Under the pieces are notes generated by a model that saw only the letters and a program-made list of their open reading frames with translations, was not told the origin of the DNA and searched no databases. A stretch of DNA of 64,000 nt from an uncultured Rickettsiales bacterium (lineage in GTDB: Bacteria; Pseudomonadota; Alphaproteobacteria; Rickettsiales; SXRF01), in assembly GCA_964575095.1 (NCBI GenBank), contig CAZNPA010000002.1, forward strand, positions 101,204 through 165,203, given 5' to 3'. Within the stretch, counting starts at the first letter, position 1, and each line of letters opens with the position of its first letter. Of the stretch, positions 153 through 57,842 are shown piece by piece. The translations under genes were made by a program, and so were the position numbers.

Positions 153-1046
153 ATGAAAAAAAGAAATATTGAAAGAATTCTAGCGGCCGGCCTTGCCGCC
201 GGTGTAGCGGGAACAGGCAACGCGCAGGCTTCGCCGCCGCCGACCTCGGGTTCGGCTGCGGACAGGCTGCTCGATACGGAAATCAACGAGTCAAAAGTCA
301 AAACCATTACTACCGTTCCCGATGCCGCCAGCGGTTTTAGCGTTACGCTGACGGAGAATGGCGAGTACGTTCTCACGTCTTCTGAAGAGCGTCACTTTGG
401 GGGAGATGCCAAGTTTTTGCTGCGCAACCTGCTTGCCAAGCCTGACTCTGTACCCGCCGCCACTACGAATCCAGACAAGTTTGCCGCTGATTTCGCTGCT
501 GAATTCCAGAAAGGGGACTATCTAACCGCCCTTTTGCCTGACGGTTACAGTATTATGCTGACGCAGAAGGGCAATTATAGGCTCGCTTTTCCCAGCGGGG
601 ATTATATTGACGGAGATTTAAAAAACTTGCTCGCGCACCTCACTTCCAAAGCTGCTCAGGCCTCGACTGCCTATGAGCGTAAAAACCCCCAATATAATAG
701 CCTTCCCCGTACTGAATACCCTCAGGGCACTGACGCAACATCGCCTGCCAAATCATATAAATCAGGGGATGATGGTTTGATGAGCACCGTAGTTTCCAGA
801 TCCCTGTGGGAAGAAATAGATAAGAAAAAGCAGCGGGGTATGGATGAAATGGCTAAAGCCGCTTTAGAAAAGGCCAGAGAAAGAGAAGAAGAAAGAGTGA
901 AAGATAAGGACGCAGGCTTTAGAGACGGGTTAATTGGAGGTGCTGCGGCTGGCGGTGTCGTCGGTATGGGAGTTACTTCTGCTGTGGCGGTTTATTTACG
1001 GCGCAAAGAAAAAGAAGCAGAAGACAACGAACCAAAGCGCGGTTAG
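153..1046 (+). CDS. Hypothetical exported/membrane-anchored protein (ORFan-like)
   Basis: ORF 138..1046; likely start ATG 153 after GGGGGAG. N-terminal signal-like segment (ILAAGLAAGVAGTGNAQA) and Gly-rich C-terminal hydrophobic helix followed by RRKEK. No family motif recognised. Confidence 0.75.
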   Translation: MKKRNIERILAAGLAAGVAGTGNAQASPPPTSGSAADRLLDTEINESKVKTITTVPDAASGFSVTLTENGEYVLTSSEERHFGGDAKFLLRNLLAKPDSVPAATTNPDKFAADFAAEFQKGDYLTALLPDGYSIMLTQKGNYRLAFPSGDYIDGDLKNLLAHLTSKAAQASTAYERKNPQYNSLPRTEYPQGTDATSPAKSYKSGDDGLMSTVVSRSLWEEIDKKKQRGMDEMAKAALEKAREREEERVKDKDAGFRDGLIGGAAAGGVVGMGVTSAVAVYLRRKEKEAEDNEPKRG

Positions 1047-1054
1047 TTTTACGT

Positions 1055-1112
1055 ACCAGACCCTGCCACCTGACTACGCCGAGGCTTCGCCAAGGCAGGT
1101 TCGGCGGGGCTG
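1055..1112. repeat. REP-like half element (family C) carrying a 31-nt nested mini-palindrome
   Basis: accagaccctgcca-[cctgactacgccgaggcttcgccaaggcagg]-ttcggcggggct matches 4452-4478 (accagaccccgcca|ttcggtggggata) once the insert at 1069-1099 is removed. Confidence 0.7.
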
Positions 1113-1937
1113 ACCTCTGGTAATCACCTTATCTCCTGCATCCAGCGCCCCATCGGCGATCAGCGGCATCTTTTTCACTTTCTCATAAATCGGCGCGAAG
1201 TCGGGCAGGGTTTCGTCGAAGAGTTGCTTAAAACTATCGATGACGAAATAGGTTTTCTGTACGTCGTCGATGCGGTAGTCGCTGCGCATGATGCGCTCCA
1301 AATCGAATTTCACGCGATTGGGAACCGGACTTTCCAGGCAGTACTGCGATTCCTTATACGACGATACGATGCCGGAGCCGTAGATGCGCAGTCCTTCCGG
1401 TGAATTGATGAGGCCGAACTCGACGGTGAACCAATAAAGCCGCTCGATTTCCTTGTCGGCATCGAGCCTATTCGCCTTCATTGCGCCCTTGCCCCATTGC
1501 TCCATGTAATCGGCGTAGACGGGAAGCGCCAGCATCGGCACGTGGCCGAACAGGTCGTGAAAAATGTCCGGCTCCTGCAGGTAGTCCATCTTGGCCGGCT
1601 CGCGTATCCACCACGTCACCGGGAACTGCCGCTTGGCGAGGTGCCCCAGGAACATCGCCGGCGGGATATAGCCCGGCACGGTGACCAGGCGGAAATTGGA
1701 GAGCTTTTGCAGCAGGTCGGAGATGCGCCGCCAGTCGGGAATTTTCTCGGAGCCGGTGACGATGCCGAGCTTCTCGATGGATTCCAGATATTCCCTGCAG
1801 GCGCGGTTCTTCAGGAGCGGTTTCTGCCGTGTACACAGCTTGTTCCACATCGCATGGTCGGCCTCGGTGTATTGCGCCGGATCGAAATCGAACGTGAAAT
1901 CTTCCCGCATTCCCGGCGGATGTTCATCAGCGCGCAT
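1074..1937 (-). CDS. phhA: Phenylalanine 4-hydroxylase
   Basis: Motifs EPDIFHDLFGHVP, RLYWFTVEFGL, IYGSGIVSS. Start ATG 1937 preceded by AAGGAGG. Confidence 0.95.
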   Translation of the reverse strand: MRADEHPPGMREDFTFDFDPAQYTEADHAMWNKLCTRQKPLLKNRACREYLESIEKLGIVTGSEKIPDWRRISDLLQKLSNFRLVTVPGYIPPAMFLGHLAKRQFPVTWWIREPAKMDYLQEPDIFHDLFGHVPMLALPVYADYMEQWGKGAMKANRLDADKEIERLYWFTVEFGLINSPEGLRIYGSGIVSSYKESQYCLESPVPNRVKFDLERIMRSDYRIDDVQKTYFVIDSFKQLFDETLPDFAPIYEKVKKMPLIADGALDAGDKVITRGQPRRTCLGEASA

Positions 1938-1992
1938 GAGTAGCCTCCTTGACTCATTGATTATAACGCGGCTTGATGTTAAATGCCAAGCC

Positions 1993-2415
1993 ATGAAAAT
2001 CGTTGAACTGAAAACCCTGCCCGATCTGCGGCGCATCTATCCGCTGATTAAGCAGCTTAATCCGAAGCTATCCAAGGCGCAGTTTAACGCCCGGCTCAAG
2101 GAGATGCTGGCGGCGGATTATCGTTGCATAGCGGCGGTGGAAGGCGCTAAAATTCTTGGCGTCGCTGGTTTCTGGATCTTCACGCGTTTCTGGTGCGGCC
2201 GTTACATCGAGCCCGATAACGTGGTGGTGGACAAGAAACTCAGAAGCCGCGGCGTCGGCAAAAAACTGATGGTGTGGATCGAGGCCGAGGCCAAGCGGCA
2301 AAAATGCGATATACTGTATTTGACGGCGTACACTCACAATCACGCGTCGCACCGGTTTTATTTGCGCGAGCGATATATTGTTAGAGGTTTTGTTTTTACT
2401 AAGGAGCTACCATGA
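1993..2415 (+). CDS. GNAT family N-acetyltransferase
   Basis: GNAT motif A (VVDKKLRSRGVGKKLM) and motif B (N..SHRFY). ATG 1993; ATGA overlap with hppD. Confidence 0.85.
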   Translation: MKIVELKTLPDLRRIYPLIKQLNPKLSKAQFNARLKEMLAADYRCIAAVEGAKILGVAGFWIFTRFWCGRYIEPDNVVVDKKLRSRGVGKKLMVWIEAEAKRQKCDILYLTAYTHNHASHRFYLRERYIVRGFVFTKELP

Positions 2416-10023: not shown

Positions 10024-10867
10024 ACCTACCATCTCTATTGTCTGCGGGCCGACGGCCAGCGGCAAGTCGGCGCTTGCATTATCCTTAGCGCAAAAAGAGA
10101 ACGGCGTCATCATCAATGCCGATTCGCAGCAGGTCTATCAGGATTTACGAATACTCACCGCACGGCCGTCGCCGGAAGAAGAGGCCTTGGTTCCTCATCG
10201 TTTATATGGATTTATGCCCGCGCACGCCGTGTGCTCGGCGGGCAAGTGGCTGGAGTTCGTCAAGATGGAAATCGACTGGGCGCTGTCGCAGGGGAAAACG
10301 CCCATCGTCTGCGGCGGCACCGGCCTCTATTTGAAAGCACTGATGGAGGGCATCGCCGACATTCCTGACATCGACGACAGCATCCGCGCCCAAGCGATGA
10401 GCGATTACGATCAGATGGGAAAAGACGCCTTCGCCGCCCGCCTGCGTGACGTCGATGCGCTGTTTTTCGAGCGCCTCAAAGTGCACGATCGGCAGCGGCT
10501 GGTGCGCGCCTATGCCGTGTGGCTAGGTACGGGAAAAACCTTAAGCTGGTGGCAAGCGCGGGGCGCGACGCCGATATATCCAAAAGAATCTTTCGAGATC
10601 ACCAAAGTCGAAATCCCGCGCGACGAGCTTTACCGCCGTTGCGACGAACGCTTTGTAAAAATGATAGAGCAGGGCGCTATTGAGGAAGTGAAGAACCTGC
10701 TTGTCTTGCACCTTTCGCCGCAATTGCCGGTAATGAAATCAGTGAGCGTGCCGGAGCTATCGGCTTATATCAAAGGCGAAATCTCTTTGGATGAGGCGAC
10801 TGCCAAGGCCCAACAAGCCACCCGCAACTACGCCAAGCGGCAGCTGACATGGTTCAGGAATCAGTGA
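10007..10867 (+). CDS. miaA: tRNA dimethylallyltransferase
   Basis: GPTASGKS, INADSQQVY, PHRLYG, CGGTGLY, TRNYAKRQLTWFR. The only plausible start near the P-loop is GTG 10007. Confidence 0.93.
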   Translation: MTTKSIPTISIVCGPTASGKSALALSLAQKENGVIINADSQQVYQDLRILTARPSPEEEALVPHRLYGFMPAHAVCSAGKWLEFVKMEIDWALSQGKTPIVCGGTGLYLKALMEGIADIPDIDDSIRAQAMSDYDQMGKDAFAARLRDVDALFFERLKVHDRQRLVRAYAVWLGTGKTLSWWQARGATPIYPKESFEITKVEIPRDELYRRCDERFVKMIEQGAIEEVKNLLVLHLSPQLPVMKSVSVPELSAYIKGEISLDEATAKAQQATRNYAKRQLTWFRNQ

Positions 10868-11349
10868 GAGATCCAAGGAGTAGGCTTATCCGGTCTTGAG
10901 AGTTTTTCTTCAAGCCTGCGGTTGGCGCGGGAGTTCGCTTGATTAATTAAGCGGCGCGTAAAAACCCCTTCCCCGTTGCCTTTGCAATCCCTGGCCAGTT
11001 CCGGGGTCCGGCTGAAGATTGCCTTCAGCGCGTTATTATGCCCGTATTCGGCGCAGAACTGCGCCATTTCGGCGTTGGGCTGCGCGCCGATTTTGAACAG
11101 CTCCTCGGCGACCTGGCCGTCGTTATTCTTGACGGCGAGATCCAATAGCTCATTTTTTGTTTGCGCGGGAAGATTCGCCAGCGCGTCTTCTGCGGGTATC
11201 GCCATATGGCGATTCTCGAAATAATCACGAATGTAGGGCAGCGCCGTTAATTTGAAACTGACCGTTACCGGCAAGAAACGGGAAGGGGAAAAAACGGATT
11301 TTTTACCATCCCCCAGCTCGGCGCCTTTGGTGCTGACAAAAAATTTCAT
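10861..11349 (-). CDS. Hypothetical protein with degenerate ankyrin-like repeats
   Basis: LLDLAVKNNDGQVAEELFKIGAQPN and MAQFCAEYGHNNALKAIF resemble ankyrin helices; AGGAAG upstream. Confidence 0.6.
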   Translation of the reverse strand: MKFFVSTKGAELGDGKKSVFSPSRFLPVTVSFKLTALPYIRDYFENRHMAIPAEDALANLPAQTKNELLDLAVKNNDGQVAEELFKIGAQPNAEMAQFCAEYGHNNALKAIFSRTPELARDCKGNGEGVFTRRLINQANSRANRRLEEKLSRPDKPTPWISH

Positions 11350-11376
11350 TAATCTTCCTTTTGGCGTAGTATGCCG

Positions 11377-11406
11377 TTGACCCTGTTATCGTGAAAAGAT
11401 TACACT
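11377..11406 (+). promoter_or_regulatory. sigma70-type promoter for ilvC-like operon
   Basis: TTGACC-N18-TACACT. Confidence 0.45.
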
Positions 11407-11474
11407 ATATTTCCGTTTTCAAGGCATGCGTAAGCCGCATGCAAGCTATGAAGAAATGTTATAGAAACAAGATC

Positions 11475-12500
11475 ATGCGCACCTATACCGACACCGACGC
11501 CGATTTGAGCCTCATCAAAGGCAAAAAGATTGCCGTCATCGGTTATGGCAGCCAGGGGCATGCGCAGGCGCTGAATTTGCGCGACTCCGGTGTCAAAAAT
11601 ATCCGCATCGGCCTTAAGCCAAATTCCAAAAGCGCAGCCATTGCCAAAGCCGCAAAATTTGAAGTTATAAGCATTGCCGAGGCGGCGAAATGGGCGGATG
11701 TCGTCGCGCTGCTCACGCCCGACGAAACGCAGGCGGAGATTTATAAAAAACATATCGCACCCAATTTAAAAAAAGGCGCATCGCTGGTCTTCGCGCACGG
11801 GTTCAACGTGCATTTCAAATTCATCAAGCCGCGCGCCGATTTGGATGTGTGGATGGTGGCGCCCAAGGAAGTGGGGCCCGTCGTGCGCTCGGAATATCAA
11901 AAAGGCGGCGGTGTGCCGTGCCTCATCGCCGTGCATAAAAATAGTTCGGGTAAAGCGAAAGCGCTGGCGCTTTCCTATGCGCTAGCGCTGGGCTGCGGCA
12001 GCAAAGGAATATTCGAGACGACCTTCGGCGACGAATGCGAAGTCGATCTGTTCGGCGAGCAGGCGGTGCTGTTCGGCGGCCTGCCGCCCCTGATGCGCGC
12101 TGGATTTGAGACATTGGTCGAGAGCGGCTACGCGCCGGAGATGGCCTATTTCAAATGCGTGCAGCAGGTAAAATTGGTGGCCGACGCCATCGCCGCGCGT
12201 GGCATCTCCGGCATGAACGAAATCATTTCCAACACGGCGGAATATGGTGGTTACATTGCCGAAAAATCCCTCGTCACCAAAAAGACCAAGAAAAAAATGA
12301 AACGTCTTTTGAAAAATATCCAGTCCGGAAAATTCGCCCGCGCATGGATGAAGGAAAACAACACCGGCCTCAAGTTTTTTGCGGCGCAGCATAAGAAAAC
12401 CGCCAAGCACAAGATGGAGGCGGTGGGAAAGAAACTGCGGGACGGAATGCTGGAGAGCGGCAAAAATAAACGAATGAACAGGGCAAAGGGGGAAAAATAA
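11475..12500 (+). CDS. ilvC: Ketol-acid reductoisomerase-like protein with substituted active-site residues
   Basis: [40 protein letters not shown]; but YFKCVQQVK replaces canonical YFECLHEVK. Confidence 0.85.
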
Positions 12501-12997
12501 TGGCATTTATCTTAACTCAAGCGCATCTCGATAGAATCGCTGAAATTGCAAAGAAGGCTAGCGACGCCGCTTTTTCCAATGTGGGCATTTTACCCACGGA
12601 TAGCGCCGGGAAAAAAAGCGATTATTATGAGCATCTCCAAAATGGATTTACCGGCGTTATAAGATTGTGCGAGGCCATGGCCGACATGCCTGATTCCGTG
12701 CAGCAGTGGCAGGATAGTTTGTATAAGGGACGCGATAAAAACTTGCCTGATATTCCAAAAGAGAGCGTACAGTTTATGCAAAACATTCAAGATGAATACG
12801 AATTGAAAGGTAAGCTTCTGGAAGCTAGGACGTTATGGAAAGACGATCCGCGCAGTCGGGGGCTGGATTATCAAGACACACAGCTAGCCATTGACGATAT
12901 TGGGCAAAAAGCGGCGGCCACCGAGGTATTAAAATACCTGGAAACGCTGCAGGGCTGGCAACGCGCTGCAACAACACCCACGCCGCCACGGTCTTGA
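12500..12997 (+). CDS. Hypothetical helical protein
   Basis: 165-aa ORF coupled to the ilvC stop (TAATG); AT-richer than its neighbours. Confidence 0.65.
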   Translation: MAFILTQAHLDRIAEIAKKASDAAFSNVGILPTDSAGKKSDYYEHLQNGFTGVIRLCEAMADMPDSVQQWQDSLYKGRDKNLPDIPKESVQFMQNIQDEYELKGKLLEARTLWKDDPRSRGLDYQDTQLAIDDIGQKAAATEVLKYLETLQGWQRAATTPTPPRS

Positions 12998-13061: not shown

Positions 13062-14216
13062 ATGACCGACCGCATCATCATCTTCGACACCACCTTGCGC
13101 GACGGCGAGCAGTCGCCGGGCATGTCGATGACGACGCCGGAGAAGCTGCAGGTGGCGGAGGTGCTGGACGCCATGGGCGTCGACGTCATCGAGGCGGGGT
13201 TCGCCATCGCGAGCCAGGGCGATTTCGAGGCAGTGCGCGAGATAGCCAAACGCACCAAGAATTCGGTGGTGTGCTCGCTGGCGCGCGCCAAGTCGGCGGA
13301 CATCGAGCGCGCCGCCGAGGCCATCAAACCGGCGAAGCGCGGCCGCATCCACACCTTCATGTCGACGTCCGAAATCCATCTCAAATACCAATACCGCATC
13401 GATAACGACGCCTGCCTTGGGATGATACGCGATAGCGTCACGCTGGCGCGCACATTCACCGATAACGTCGAATGGTCGGCGATGGATTCCACGCGCACCG
13501 ATAAAGATTTTCTCTGCAAGGCGGTAGAAGAAGCGATCAAGTGCGGCGCGACGACGGTCAATATTCCCGACACCGTTGGTTATGCAACGCCCAATGATTA
13601 CGGCGCACTGATCGCGCATCTTAAAAACAAAGTGCCCAATATCGACAAGGCCGTCATCTCGACGCACTGCCAGAACGACCTCGGCCTCGCCACCGCCAAC
13701 AGTTTGGCCGCCATCTTAAATGGAGCGCGGCAGATCGAGTGCACCATCAACGGCATCGGCGAGCGCGCCGGGAATACGTCGCTCGAGGAAGTGGTGATGG
13801 CGATCAAGGTGCGCTCCGACATTTACAAATTCAAAACCAATATCGACAGCACGCACATCATGCGCGCCTCGCGGCTGATACAGGATATCACCGGCGAGAA
13901 GGTGCAGGTCAACAAGGCCATCGTCGGCGCCAACGCGTTCGCGCACGAATCCGGCATCCACCAGGACGGCGTCTTGAAGCACGCCGGAACCTACGAAATC
14001 ATGACGCCGGAATCGGTGGGGCTGGAAAAGTCCAACCTGGTGATGGGCAAGCACTCCGGGCGCCACGCATTTAAGGATAAGCTGGTGTCGCTGGGCTTCA
14101 ATTTGGGCGACAATGCCATCGAGGACGCCTTCCACCGCTTCAAGGAACTGGCTGACAAGCAGAAAAAAATCGACGATCAGGACATAATCACCCTCATCAA
14201 GAAAATGGCGTCGTAA
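13062..14216 (+). CDS. leuA: 2-isopropylmalate synthase, short form (no C-terminal regulatory domain)
   Basis: DTTLRDGEQSPG, HCQNDLGLA, GERAGN, HESGIHQDG, GKHSGRHA; ends at 384 aa. Confidence 0.9.
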   Translation: MTDRIIIFDTTLRDGEQSPGMSMTTPEKLQVAEVLDAMGVDVIEAGFAIASQGDFEAVREIAKRTKNSVVCSLARAKSADIERAAEAIKPAKRGRIHTFMSTSEIHLKYQYRIDNDACLGMIRDSVTLARTFTDNVEWSAMDSTRTDKDFLCKAVEEAIKCGATTVNIPDTVGYATPNDYGALIAHLKNKVPNIDKAVISTHCQNDLGLATANSLAAILNGARQIECTINGIGERAGNTSLEEVVMAIKVRSDIYKFKTNIDSTHIMRASRLIQDITGEKVQVNKAIVGANAFAHESGIHQDGVLKHAGTYEIMTPESVGLEKSNLVMGKHSGRHAFKDKLVSLGFNLGDNAIEDAFHRFKELADKQKKIDDQDIITLIKKMAS

Positions 14217-56908: not shown

Positions 56909-56970
56909 GAGGGATTGGGGTAAAAAGAAAATTAAATAAATTTTTCCCTAATCCCCAAAGCCTAATCCCT
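56909..56970. repeat. GGGATT[A/G] heptamer element between convergent pgsA and ilvE
   Basis: gagggattgggg ... ttccctaatccccaaagcctaatccct; the reverse complement is 25/26 identical to 63944-63969. Confidence 0.8.
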
Positions 56971-57842
56971 TATTTCCTCACCAAATCCCCGTACGCCTGC
57001 ATCAGCGTTTCGGTGACGCGGCCGACCTGGAACTGTTGGTCGCCGATCTGGCCGACGGGCGTGACCTCGGCGGCGCTGCCGGTTAAGAAGACTTCCGATA
57101 CATTTTTAAGTTCCTCCGGCTTGATGTGCCGCTCGACGACTTTCATGCCTTTATCTTTCGCCAGCTGCATTACCGTCTGGCGGGTGATGCCGTTTAAGAA
57201 ACAGTCGGCAGTCGGCGTATGCACGGCGCCATCCATCACCAAAAATAAATTGGCGCCGGTGGCCTCGGCGAGATAGCCGCGGTAATCGAGCATCAAAGCG
57301 TCGTTATAACCTTCGGCTTCGGCGGTGTTTTTGGCCATGGTGCAGATCATATAGAGGCCCGCGGCTTTGCTGGCCACCGGCGCCATGTTGGGCGCGGGAC
57401 GCGTCCATTTTGACCATTGCAATTTGAGACCGCGCTCCTTGGCTTCCTTGCCGAAATAGCTCGGCCATTCCCAGGTAGCGATGGCAACGTGGATCTTGGT
57501 GCCTTTGGACGCCACCGACATCATCTCGCTGCCGCGCCAGGCGAGCGGTCTGAGGTAACCGTTGACGATACTCTGTTTTTTGATCAGTTCTTTTTTGGCC
57601 GCATCCAGCTCCTCGACCGAAAAAGGAATTTTGAAATCCAGAAGCTCTGCCGATTTGTGCAGGCGCTGGCTATGCTCGCGCGATTTGAAAATCTTGCCGT
57701 TGTAGGCGCGCTCGCCCTCGAACACCGCCGATGCGTAATGCAGGCCGTGCGTCAGCACGTGTACTTTGGCATCACGCCAGGGTACGAATTTTCCATCGAA
57801 CCAGATTACGCCATCGCGGTCGTCGAAGGGAATTATGGTCAT
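56970..57842 (-). CDS. ilvE: Branched-chain amino acid aminotransferase
   Basis: HGLHYASAVFEGERAY, GYLRP, KAAGLY, EATGANLF, L.GITRQTV, EVFLTGSAAEVTPV. Confidence 0.96.
   Translation of the reverse strand: MTIIPFDDRDGVIWFDGKFVPWRDAKVHVLTHGLHYASAVFEGERAYNGKIFKSREHSQRLHKSAELLDFKIPFSVEELDAAKKELIKKQSIVNGYLRPLAWRGSEMMSVASKGTKIHVAIATWEWPSYFGKEAKERGLKLQWSKWTRPAPNMAPVASKAAGLYMICTMAKNTAEAEGYNDALMLDYRGYLAEATGANLFLVMDGAVHTPTADCFLNGITRQTVMQLAKDKGMKVVERHIKPEELKNVSEVFLTGSAAEVTPVGQIGDQQFQVGRVTETLMQAYGDLVRK

Follow-up and report, generated by a model that had tools for sequence, protein, structure and literature searches.

The gene and its product

The window considered here, by which is meant the whole stretch of DNA analysed, comprises 64,000 nucleotides of contig CAZNPA010000002.1 (positions 101,204 to 165,203 of the forward strand; assembly GCA_964575095.1) from an uncultured bacterium of the Rickettsiales. 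The gene of interest, termed ilvC* below, occupies 11475-12500 on the plus strand. Its translation is an uninterrupted 341-residue homologue of class I ketol-acid reductoisomerase (KARI; the ilvC product, EC 1.1.1.86), without the ligands of the second of the two magnesium ions, and it is a candidate ketopantoate reductase. KARI itself performs, at one site, a Mg-dependent alkyl shift and then an NADPH-dependent reduction, and the two activities are separately measurable (PMC5940873).

Homology places the protein in the KARI family. The eleven residues at its start line up with MRVYYDxDADL of its homologues, and both domains of the KARI architecture are there, the Rossmann domain (Pfam KARI_N, 239 bits, residues 14-178) and the knotted one (KARI_C, 172 bits, residues 184-325). 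Two NCBIfam models score well above their cut-offs, NF004017 (ketol-acid reductoisomerase) with 478.6 bits vs 336 and TIGR00465 with 381.4 bits vs 226. The nearest solved structures are KARIs (E-values 1e-129 to 1e-86), and at about 60% identity to them the predicted KARI fold is not in doubt. The cofactor motif GxGxxG is present as GYGSQG (residues 23-28), and the β2-αB specificity loop, LKPNSKS at 47-53, is of the NADPH type, with seven residues; its counterpart in the Methanothermococcus enzyme (MtKARI) is LRPNGAS, also at 47-53 (PMC8615647). His108, Lys131, Asp191, Glu195 and Ser252 are all kept, as are HGF (108-110) and DLFGEQ (191-196). Membership of the PanE/ApbA family (TIGR00745) was looked for as well, and the window protein (P0001) matches KARI models only.

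A rebuilt active site

What is not kept is a set of residues that surrounds the catalytic centre. The DNA within 12141-12180 includes ATG GCC TAT TTC AAA TGC GTG CAG CAG GTA AAA, in which the codons for K227 (AAA, 12153), C228, V229, Q230 (CAG, 12162) and Q231 (CAG, 12165), together 12153-12167 on the plus strand, replace E227, H230 and E231 of the canonical second metal site; that is to say, Glu227 has become Lys and Glu231 Gln, with Gln also at 230 where canonical KARI has His. In the Sulfolobus enzyme Mg(I) sits on D191 and E195, and Mg(II) on D191, E227 and E231 (PMC5940873). In MtKARI site A consists of E195 and D191 and site B of D191 and E231, E227 being more distant (PMC8615647), and E227 and E231 are described as conserved among class I KARIs (PMC5940873). 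The residue numbering of ilvC* coincides with that of both archaeal enzymes, and because of the ligand roles established there, the first metal site is kept, and both specific ligands of the second are lost.

Two further stretches are altered. The active-site loop of ten residues, 129-138 (11859-11888, plus strand), retains K131 and carries the clade-diagnostic changes G132E, P133V, H135P and T136V. In the stretch from D191 to F200 (12045-12074, plus strand) the Mg(I) ligands D191 and E195 stand between the changes T190V (12042-12044) and C200F (12072-12074), the latter giving VLFGG at 198-202. At the matching positions canonical relatives and solved KARIs have YFE[CT][LV]HE, APKGPGH and LCGG. 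Thus the sequence features from which a preliminary description of this gene had started, YFKCVQQVK for YFECLHEVK, a changed loop in place of APKGPGHxVR, VLFGG for VLCGG, retention of DLFGEQ and HGF, and an intact frame, are all exactly as it had given them, and its statement that the two missing glutamates serve the second metal agrees with the archaeal structures.

Are these substitutions chance accidents of one gene? They are not: they are fixed across a whole clade. Among the 120 best matches of a search for homologues in a database of 5.8 billion proteins, 17 carry the signature of ilvC*, with the frame intact in every one and 62-84% identity to the window protein; E227 together with E231 is found in 104 of the 120, and in all 32 canonical sequences aligned. 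Two types can be told apart, one with lysine at 227 (YFKC[VA]QQV, APK[ED][VI]G[PL], VLFGGLPPL) and one with arginine (YFRCV[HQ]QV, APKDTGA, VFFGGVVPL). The glutamate pair that marks the Mg(II) site of class I KARI is therefore K or R and Q throughout the clade. There are 18 columns at which the variants and the 32 canonical relatives share no residue (132, 133, 135, 136, 190, 200, 227, 231, 235, 236, 238, 242, 246, 248-250, 259 and 328), and almost every one of them belongs to the active-site loop that follows Lys131, to the surroundings of the metal ligands, or to the helix-turn segment ahead of the serine that binds the substrate. At position 132 the canonical sequences have Gly without exception and the variants Glu or Asp without exception, so that an acidic residue has been gained beside K131 and a basic one at 227; D259G and a rewritten stretch from 235 to 250 complete the differences. 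Throughout, GxGxxG, H108, K131, D191, E195 and S252 are invariant in the 17-sequence alignment. This distribution of change and constancy points to an active site that is remodelled rather than decayed. On this point the preliminary description needs correcting: the gene is not a one-off degenerate copy and belongs to a conserved and apparently laterally spreading clade.

A maximum likelihood tree (LG+C20) unites 14 variant sequences in a single clade (support 100/100) whose stem is long, at 0.35 substitutions per site. Codon comparison of the closest variant pairs gave ratios of nonsynonymous to synonymous change (dN/dS) of 0.135 (dS 0.82) and 0.092 (dS 0.60), canonical pairs giving 0.008-0.054. 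Because of the values in the two variant pairs, ilvC* is considered to be under purifying selection, though less tightly than ordinary ilvC. One could still ask if the gene is a functionless relic, left over from the lost valine pathway and now turning into a pseudogene. Its pathway partners have gone (see below), it has lost two catalytic ligands and its protein evolves faster than canonical IlvC, all of which would suit a relic. Against this, all 17 frames are intact with dN/dS at 0.09-0.14, the same replacements are fixed across sequences just 62-84% identical with the other catalytic residues invariant, and relatives that need neither of the two pathways at issue have deleted ilvC entirely. 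Decay is rejected on the strength of the intact frames, the clade-wide fixation and the dN/dS values, and the relic idea retains hardly any credibility. The gene of one variant genome, G015, looked broken at first sight; its two fragments, each at a contig end of the same assembly (JAGVLW01), reflect a split made in assembly. Nor was any genome found with both a canonical and a variant ilvC, the extra ilvC matches in G033 and G010 being canonical fragments or contig pieces.

Pathway content of the host and its kin

What use is a reductoisomerase to an organism that can neither make its substrate nor use its product? The host genome (G000 below) is a 1.80-Mb assembly of 10 contigs rated 100% complete; the sequencing runs that hold the window DNA are exclusively bioreactor metagenomes of one study, with no RNA runs listed. 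Its one ilvC-type gene is ilvC*. The preliminary description had noted that acetohydroxyacid (acetolactate) synthase (AHAS) was missing locally, and AHAS is in fact absent from the whole genome. The sole match to an AHAS-like thiamine diphosphate enzyme is an indolepyruvate/phenylpyruvate decarboxylase (TIGR03394, 643 bits vs a cut-off of 554.5; contig C4, 232398-233942, minus strand, equivalent to 715-2340, minus strand, of locus L002), so that no other source of acetolactate is in sight. Dihydroxy-acid dehydratase (ilvD), the next enzyme, was not found in this genome either. Because both AHAS and ilvD are missing, the KARI step is useless there for valine: its substrate cannot be made and its product could not be used.

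By contrast with the valine pathway, that for pantothenate is complete in G000 except for the ketopantoate reductase step. Present are panB, panC, panD (C5, 62013-62366, plus strand, 148 bits), ilvE, leuA, leuB (C1, 58683-59729), leuC (C1, 61418-62818) and proC. The branched-chain aminotransferase gene ilvE, which the preliminary description had placed in the window, is indeed there, at 56970-57842 on the minus strand (TIGR01122, 309.8 bits over C2 158176-159006, which is 56973-57803 of the window), and is the proposed source of 2-ketoisovalerate from valine. The best match to PanE in the genome has 20 bits vs a cut-off of 141, and no protein of the DUF2520 family, which we take to be that of PanG, was found in it. 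The organism should then need external valine and isoleucine, yet turn valine into leucine and pantothenate.

How widespread is this arrangement? A scan of 185,579 prokaryotic species, one genome each, with a degenerate nucleotide pattern encoding PE.AYF[K/R..]C[V/A][Q/H]QV picked out only three genomes besides G000, namely G004, G021 and G015. All four belong to one alphaproteobacterial family (f1), represent four different genera and are 99-100% complete. AHAS, IlvD, PanE and PanG were not found in any of the four; PanB, PanC, PanD and ProC are in all of them. The pathway context of a KARI, AHAS upstream and the dehydratase downstream in the same genome, is accordingly lacking in every carrier, and the context of a ketopantoate reductase, PanB, PanC and PanD with neither PanE nor PanG, is found.

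The pathway content bears on the idea that the protein is still a working bifunctional KARI with altered metal ligation, Gln231, Gln230 and water holding Mg(II). It does score above the curated thresholds of two KARI equivalog models in NCBIfam, a glutamine carbonyl oxygen can ligate Mg, and D191, which bridges both metals, is kept. But four genomes of 99-100% completeness have neither AHAS nor IlvD, ilvB and ilvN are gone from a conserved chromosomal slot (see below), a positive Lys or Arg at 227 should repel metal, and E227 and E231 are invariant in the 32 canonical relatives and conserved in class I KARIs generally (PMC5940873). A working reductoisomerase is thus very unlikely. A role as pyrroline-5-carboxylate (P5C) reductase was also considered, a promiscuous activity of this kind being known for Streptomyces KARIs (PMC4353338); it is unneeded, as proC is in all four variant genomes.

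A wider comparison covered 60 relatives, 36 of the same family and the rest of the same order, making 61 genomes with G000. Within family f1, AHAS and IlvD are missing from exactly the four variant genomes. Across the 61 genomes the pair is also missing from seven that have no ilvC; apart from the incomplete genomes G025 (without ilvD) and G059 (without AHAS), every genome with canonical IlvC has both. The distribution of panB is of another kind: it is in the four variant genomes and almost all those with canonical IlvC, its absence being confined to the seven ilvC-less genomes, G055 and the incomplete G033, and all 52 of the 52 genomes with panB have an ilvC-type match. PanE exceeds its cut-off in four of the 61, all outside family f1, and PanG-type proteins were found in none of them. 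Because no f1 genome has PanE or PanG, no known candidate other than IlvC is available for reducing ketopantoate anywhere in that family. In short, an ilvC-type gene is kept with either valine or pantothenate synthesis and lost with both, and the variant site occurs exactly where pantothenate synthesis alone remains.

These counts weigh on an alternative that has more to commend it than those above, that ilvC* encodes a KARI-fold reductase for some other substrate, reducing 2-ketoisovalerate or 2-keto-isocaproate to the 2-hydroxy acid, or an imine, with pantoate coming from an unrecognised enzyme or by import. KARIs are promiscuous on 2-keto acids and on P5C (PMC4353338, PMC5940873), the changes at 246-250 and 132-136 exceed mere loss of a metal site and could signal new specificity, and ilvC* stays beside leuA. 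That adjacency is, however, ancestral synteny; these genomes have no known pathway that calls for such a product, and ProC is present. Furthermore, PanB, PanC and PanD are kept without PanE or PanG, and PanB is useless without a ketopantoate reductase, and ilvC-type genes accompany panB in 52 of 52 genomes and are lost together with it in 7 of 7. Another substrate is therefore regarded as unlikely.

The chromosomal slot and probable spread of the allele

Canonical relatives share the gene order degP - HAD hydrolase - miaA - (LOG) - ilvB - ilvN - ilvC - leuA - mreB - mreC - mreD - pbp2. The same order without ilvB and ilvN is found in the four variant genomes and in three metagenomic contigs with R-type or K-type genes. 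In the window the upstream anchor is miaA, for an isopentenyl pyrophosphate transferase (10046-10867, plus strand; Pfam IPPT 238 bits), which ilvB and ilvN follow in canonical relatives, and the downstream anchor is leuA (13062-14216, plus strand). By synteny the slot of ilvB and ilvN corresponds to 10868-11474, which holds only an unrelated minus-strand frame of 162 residues, and no remnants of either AHAS gene were detected in the variant loci (tblastn, all E > 0.05).

Genera g5 and g9, each with a variant-bearing species, also hold species with canonical IlvC, AHAS and IlvD. The variant genome G021 illustrates what this means for the locus. Its flanking proteins are closest to those of its congener G008 (MreB 98%, HAD 81%, MiaA 72% and DegP 70%); the IlvC proteins of the two are only 70% identical, vs up to 84% for canonical IlvCs across genera. 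The tree places the variants as the sister group of canonical IlvC from genus g9 (91/86), with G021, together with P0008, as the first branch inside the clade. G034, the canonical congener of the variant-bearing G004, is placed elsewhere, and a tree constrained to unite G004 with G034 is rejected (log-likelihood difference 122, approximately unbiased (AU) test p about 1e-76), the group tested having been named after the tree was seen. Independent in situ origin in each genus is opposed both by this rejection and by monophyly of the variants on a long stem. The pattern suggests a single origin of the allele, possibly in or near genus g9, and lateral spread between genera is likely to have been by homologous replacement of the locus, ilvBN being removed in the same step. 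The canonical IlvC of G034 (genus g5; contig C4 of that genome, L051 8088-9116, plus strand) groups with those of families f15 and f10 (100/97) and not with its own family, and canonical ilvC may also have been laterally exchanged in this group.

A probable ketopantoate reductase

That IlvC can act as a ketopantoate reductase has long been known. The reductase half-reaction of KARI takes various 2-keto acids (Tyagi 2005, as cited in PMC5940873), the canonical IlvC of Corynebacterium glutamicum without panE is the sole ketopantoate reductase, going by the account of Merkamm 2003 in PMC4353338, and Buchnera IlvC complements an Escherichia coli panE mutant (PMC4306246). For ilvC* the combined signs from residues and genomes make it probable that the protein is a reductase-only KARI derivative which acts as a ketopantoate reductase, its substrate coming from valine through IlvE and PanB. 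It appears that what was a side activity has become the sole function.

In this proposal ilvC* would be a KARI-fold, NADPH-dependent 2-keto-acid reductase without the Mg-dependent alkyl-migration, or isomerase, half. Imported valine would be converted by IlvE to 2-ketoisovalerate, that by PanB to ketopantoate, and ketopantoate by IlvC* to pantoate, which PanC would join to β-alanine from PanD to give pantothenate, the ketoisovalerate pool being shared with LeuABCD. Because AHAS and IlvD are lost and PanB and PanC kept, the route from valine to pantoate is the only known pathway in G000 and the other variant genomes that needs a KARI-type reductase. Chemically, loss of E227 and E231 with a cation at 227 would leave no second metal, and alkyl migration would be lost with it. 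The α-keto-carboxylate of ketopantoate would chelate Mg(I) at D191/E195, with hydride from NADPH and the roles of K131 and H108 unchanged. The second metal may well be dispensable for this substrate because ketopantoate lacks the 3-hydroxyl that could bridge two metals. An ion pair between Lys/Arg227 and Glu/Asp132 may fill the vacated Mg(II) site or contact the 4-hydroxyl, and the rewritten turn at 246-250 may adapt the pocket to the larger 3,3-dimethyl-4-hydroxy group. Several active-site mutants of E. coli KARI studied by Tyagi et al. in 2005 reportedly lose isomerase and retain reductase, and none does the reverse.

Several considerations count against this assignment. In canonical KARI both metals touch the substrate and reduction itself is metal-dependent, and loss of Mg(II) could cripple reduction too. 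A non-homologous ketopantoate reductase of another kind could conceivably be present in these genomes, the role of the clade being read from sequence and genome context. As the carriers are related to one another and the allele arose once, few independent events lie behind the phyletic pattern, and the tree could be influenced by the variants' long branches. Constraint is relaxed, with variant dN/dS 2-10 times that of canonical pairs. Finally, all the genomes are metagenome-assembled and the absences rest on completeness estimates, except that ilvBN is seen to be missing on the contig itself.

With these points in mind, the preliminary description fares well. It had raised the possibility of repurposing from valine via ketoisovalerate and ketopantoate to pantoate, and since the carriers have lost AHAS and IlvD and kept PanB and PanC, that route is supported at the level of gene content. 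The genes it had singled out for attention proved to be divided as the route would have it (panB and panC present; panE, ilvD and AHAS absent), alignment and phylogeny with IlvC put the variants in one clade with 100/100 support, and the prospect it had left standing, that the substitutions might be common in KARIs, has receded with the finding of the motif in 4 of 185,579 species genomes. It had also cited both PanG and IlvC as KARI-like proteins that act as ketopantoate reductases. For IlvC there is published backing (PMC4353338, PMC4306246); PanG, a member of the DUF2520 family, is not known to be KARI-like.

Where does ilvC* stand in relation to enzymes already described? Compared with canonical class I KARI (PDB 1NP3, 4XIY and 8PRU; Sulfolobus, Methanothermococcus) it is 55-70% identical to its relatives' IlvC and shares the KARI_N and KARI_C domains, the NADPH-type loop, H108/K131/D191/E195/S252 and the same chromosomal slot. 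Unlike canonical KARI, its clade has E227 as K/R and E231 as Q, a loop in which GPGHT is altered to [ED][VIT]G[PA]x, C200F, T190V, D259G and a rewritten 235-250, in hosts with no AHAS or IlvD. It resembles the moonlighting IlvC of Salmonella, C. glutamicum and Buchnera aphidicola in being proposed for the PanE step in a panE-less genome (PMC4353338, PMC4306246). The enzymes of those organisms, however, are ordinary bifunctional KARIs that still serve valine and isoleucine, whereas the amino-acid role of ilvC* is gone and its active site rebuilt. PanE/ApbA (EC 1.1.1.169) and PanG perform the same NADPH reaction as is proposed for ilvC*, which belongs to neither family, though PanE is also, like the KARI fold, in the wider superfamily of proteins that resemble 6-phosphogluconate dehydrogenase. 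PanE works metal-free with a catalytic lysine. Full-text searches of the literature brought up no account of a group of KARIs devoid of the Mg(II) ligands. The apparent novelty is a KARI clade that is dedicated, rebuilt and laterally spreading and has shed the isomerase machinery.

A bolder version can be entertained. In it, Lys/Arg227 and Glu/Asp132 would physically replace the second Mg, giving a dedicated ketopantoate reductase with a single metal, or even none, and hence one more independent way of catalysing the PanE step. The allele would spread by replacement of the miaA-ilvBN-ilvC-leuA segment, a single recombination installing the enzyme and deleting acetolactate synthase, and valine synthesis would be pruned laterally and not by slow decay. 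Taken as a whole this is speculative and regarded as unlikely.

Why might the probable reductase matter? The roles of the two metals of KARI in alkyl migration and in reduction have been assigned mainly with mutants and inhibitors, and ilvC* may be regarded as a natural experiment in which evolution removed one metal site and selection still maintained the protein, seemingly for reduction alone. If the proposal is right, a promiscuous side activity can become the sole function after loss of the main pathway with no gene duplication, and enzyme engineers have at hand a KARI scaffold freed of the isomerase constraint. There would also be a systematic annotation error. Public records name these variant proteins ketol-acid reductoisomerase and the variants pass KARI equivalog thresholds, so metabolic reconstructions would credit an unusable step of valine and isoleucine synthesis and leave the pantothenate pathway seemingly broken. 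The organisms would be predicted auxotrophs for valine and isoleucine, with leucine and vitamin B5 made from imported valine. As the second metal site and the pathway context both fail, ilvC* should not be filed as EC 1.1.1.86.

Neighbouring genes and other observations

The minus-strand frame of 162 residues that fills the ilvB-ilvN slot (10861-11349) has no Pfam match at E <= 0.001. Downstream, the ATG of a frame of 165 residues (12500-12997, plus strand) overlaps the stop codon of ilvC* as TAATG, with an AAGGGGG stretch ahead of it. Neither Pfam nor NCBIfam has a match for it, the search of the 5.8 billion proteins yielded only the frame itself, and it is absent from the other variant loci; a conserved partner of ilvC* it is therefore not.

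The leuA product of the window is of 384 residues and is without the C-terminal LeuA_dimer regulatory domain; it would be the second consumer of ketoisovalerate. Similarly short forms (382-390 residues; HMGL-like and HCS_D2, no LeuA_dimer) are seen in G000, G021 and the contigs of P0030 and P0061 (window 13062-14216, L050 11605-12771 and L060 4430-5578), and a full leuA of 512-530 residues in G004, G015 and the contig of P0016. A missing leucine-feedback domain is thus a recurrent feature of the lineages that bear the variant.

The contig of P0003, the closest relative at 84% identity, is differently arranged. There, ilvC* is followed not by leuA but by a gene for a 131-residue protein of the bAvd/23S_rRNA_IVP type (L062 6070-6465, plus strand), which may be an inserted accessory gene of a diversity-generating retroelement, and an unannotated frame of 380 residues lies ahead of ilvC* and overlaps its start. 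Elsewhere in the host genome, the indolepyruvate/phenylpyruvate decarboxylase mentioned above is a noteworthy gene for a genome of 1.8 Mb.

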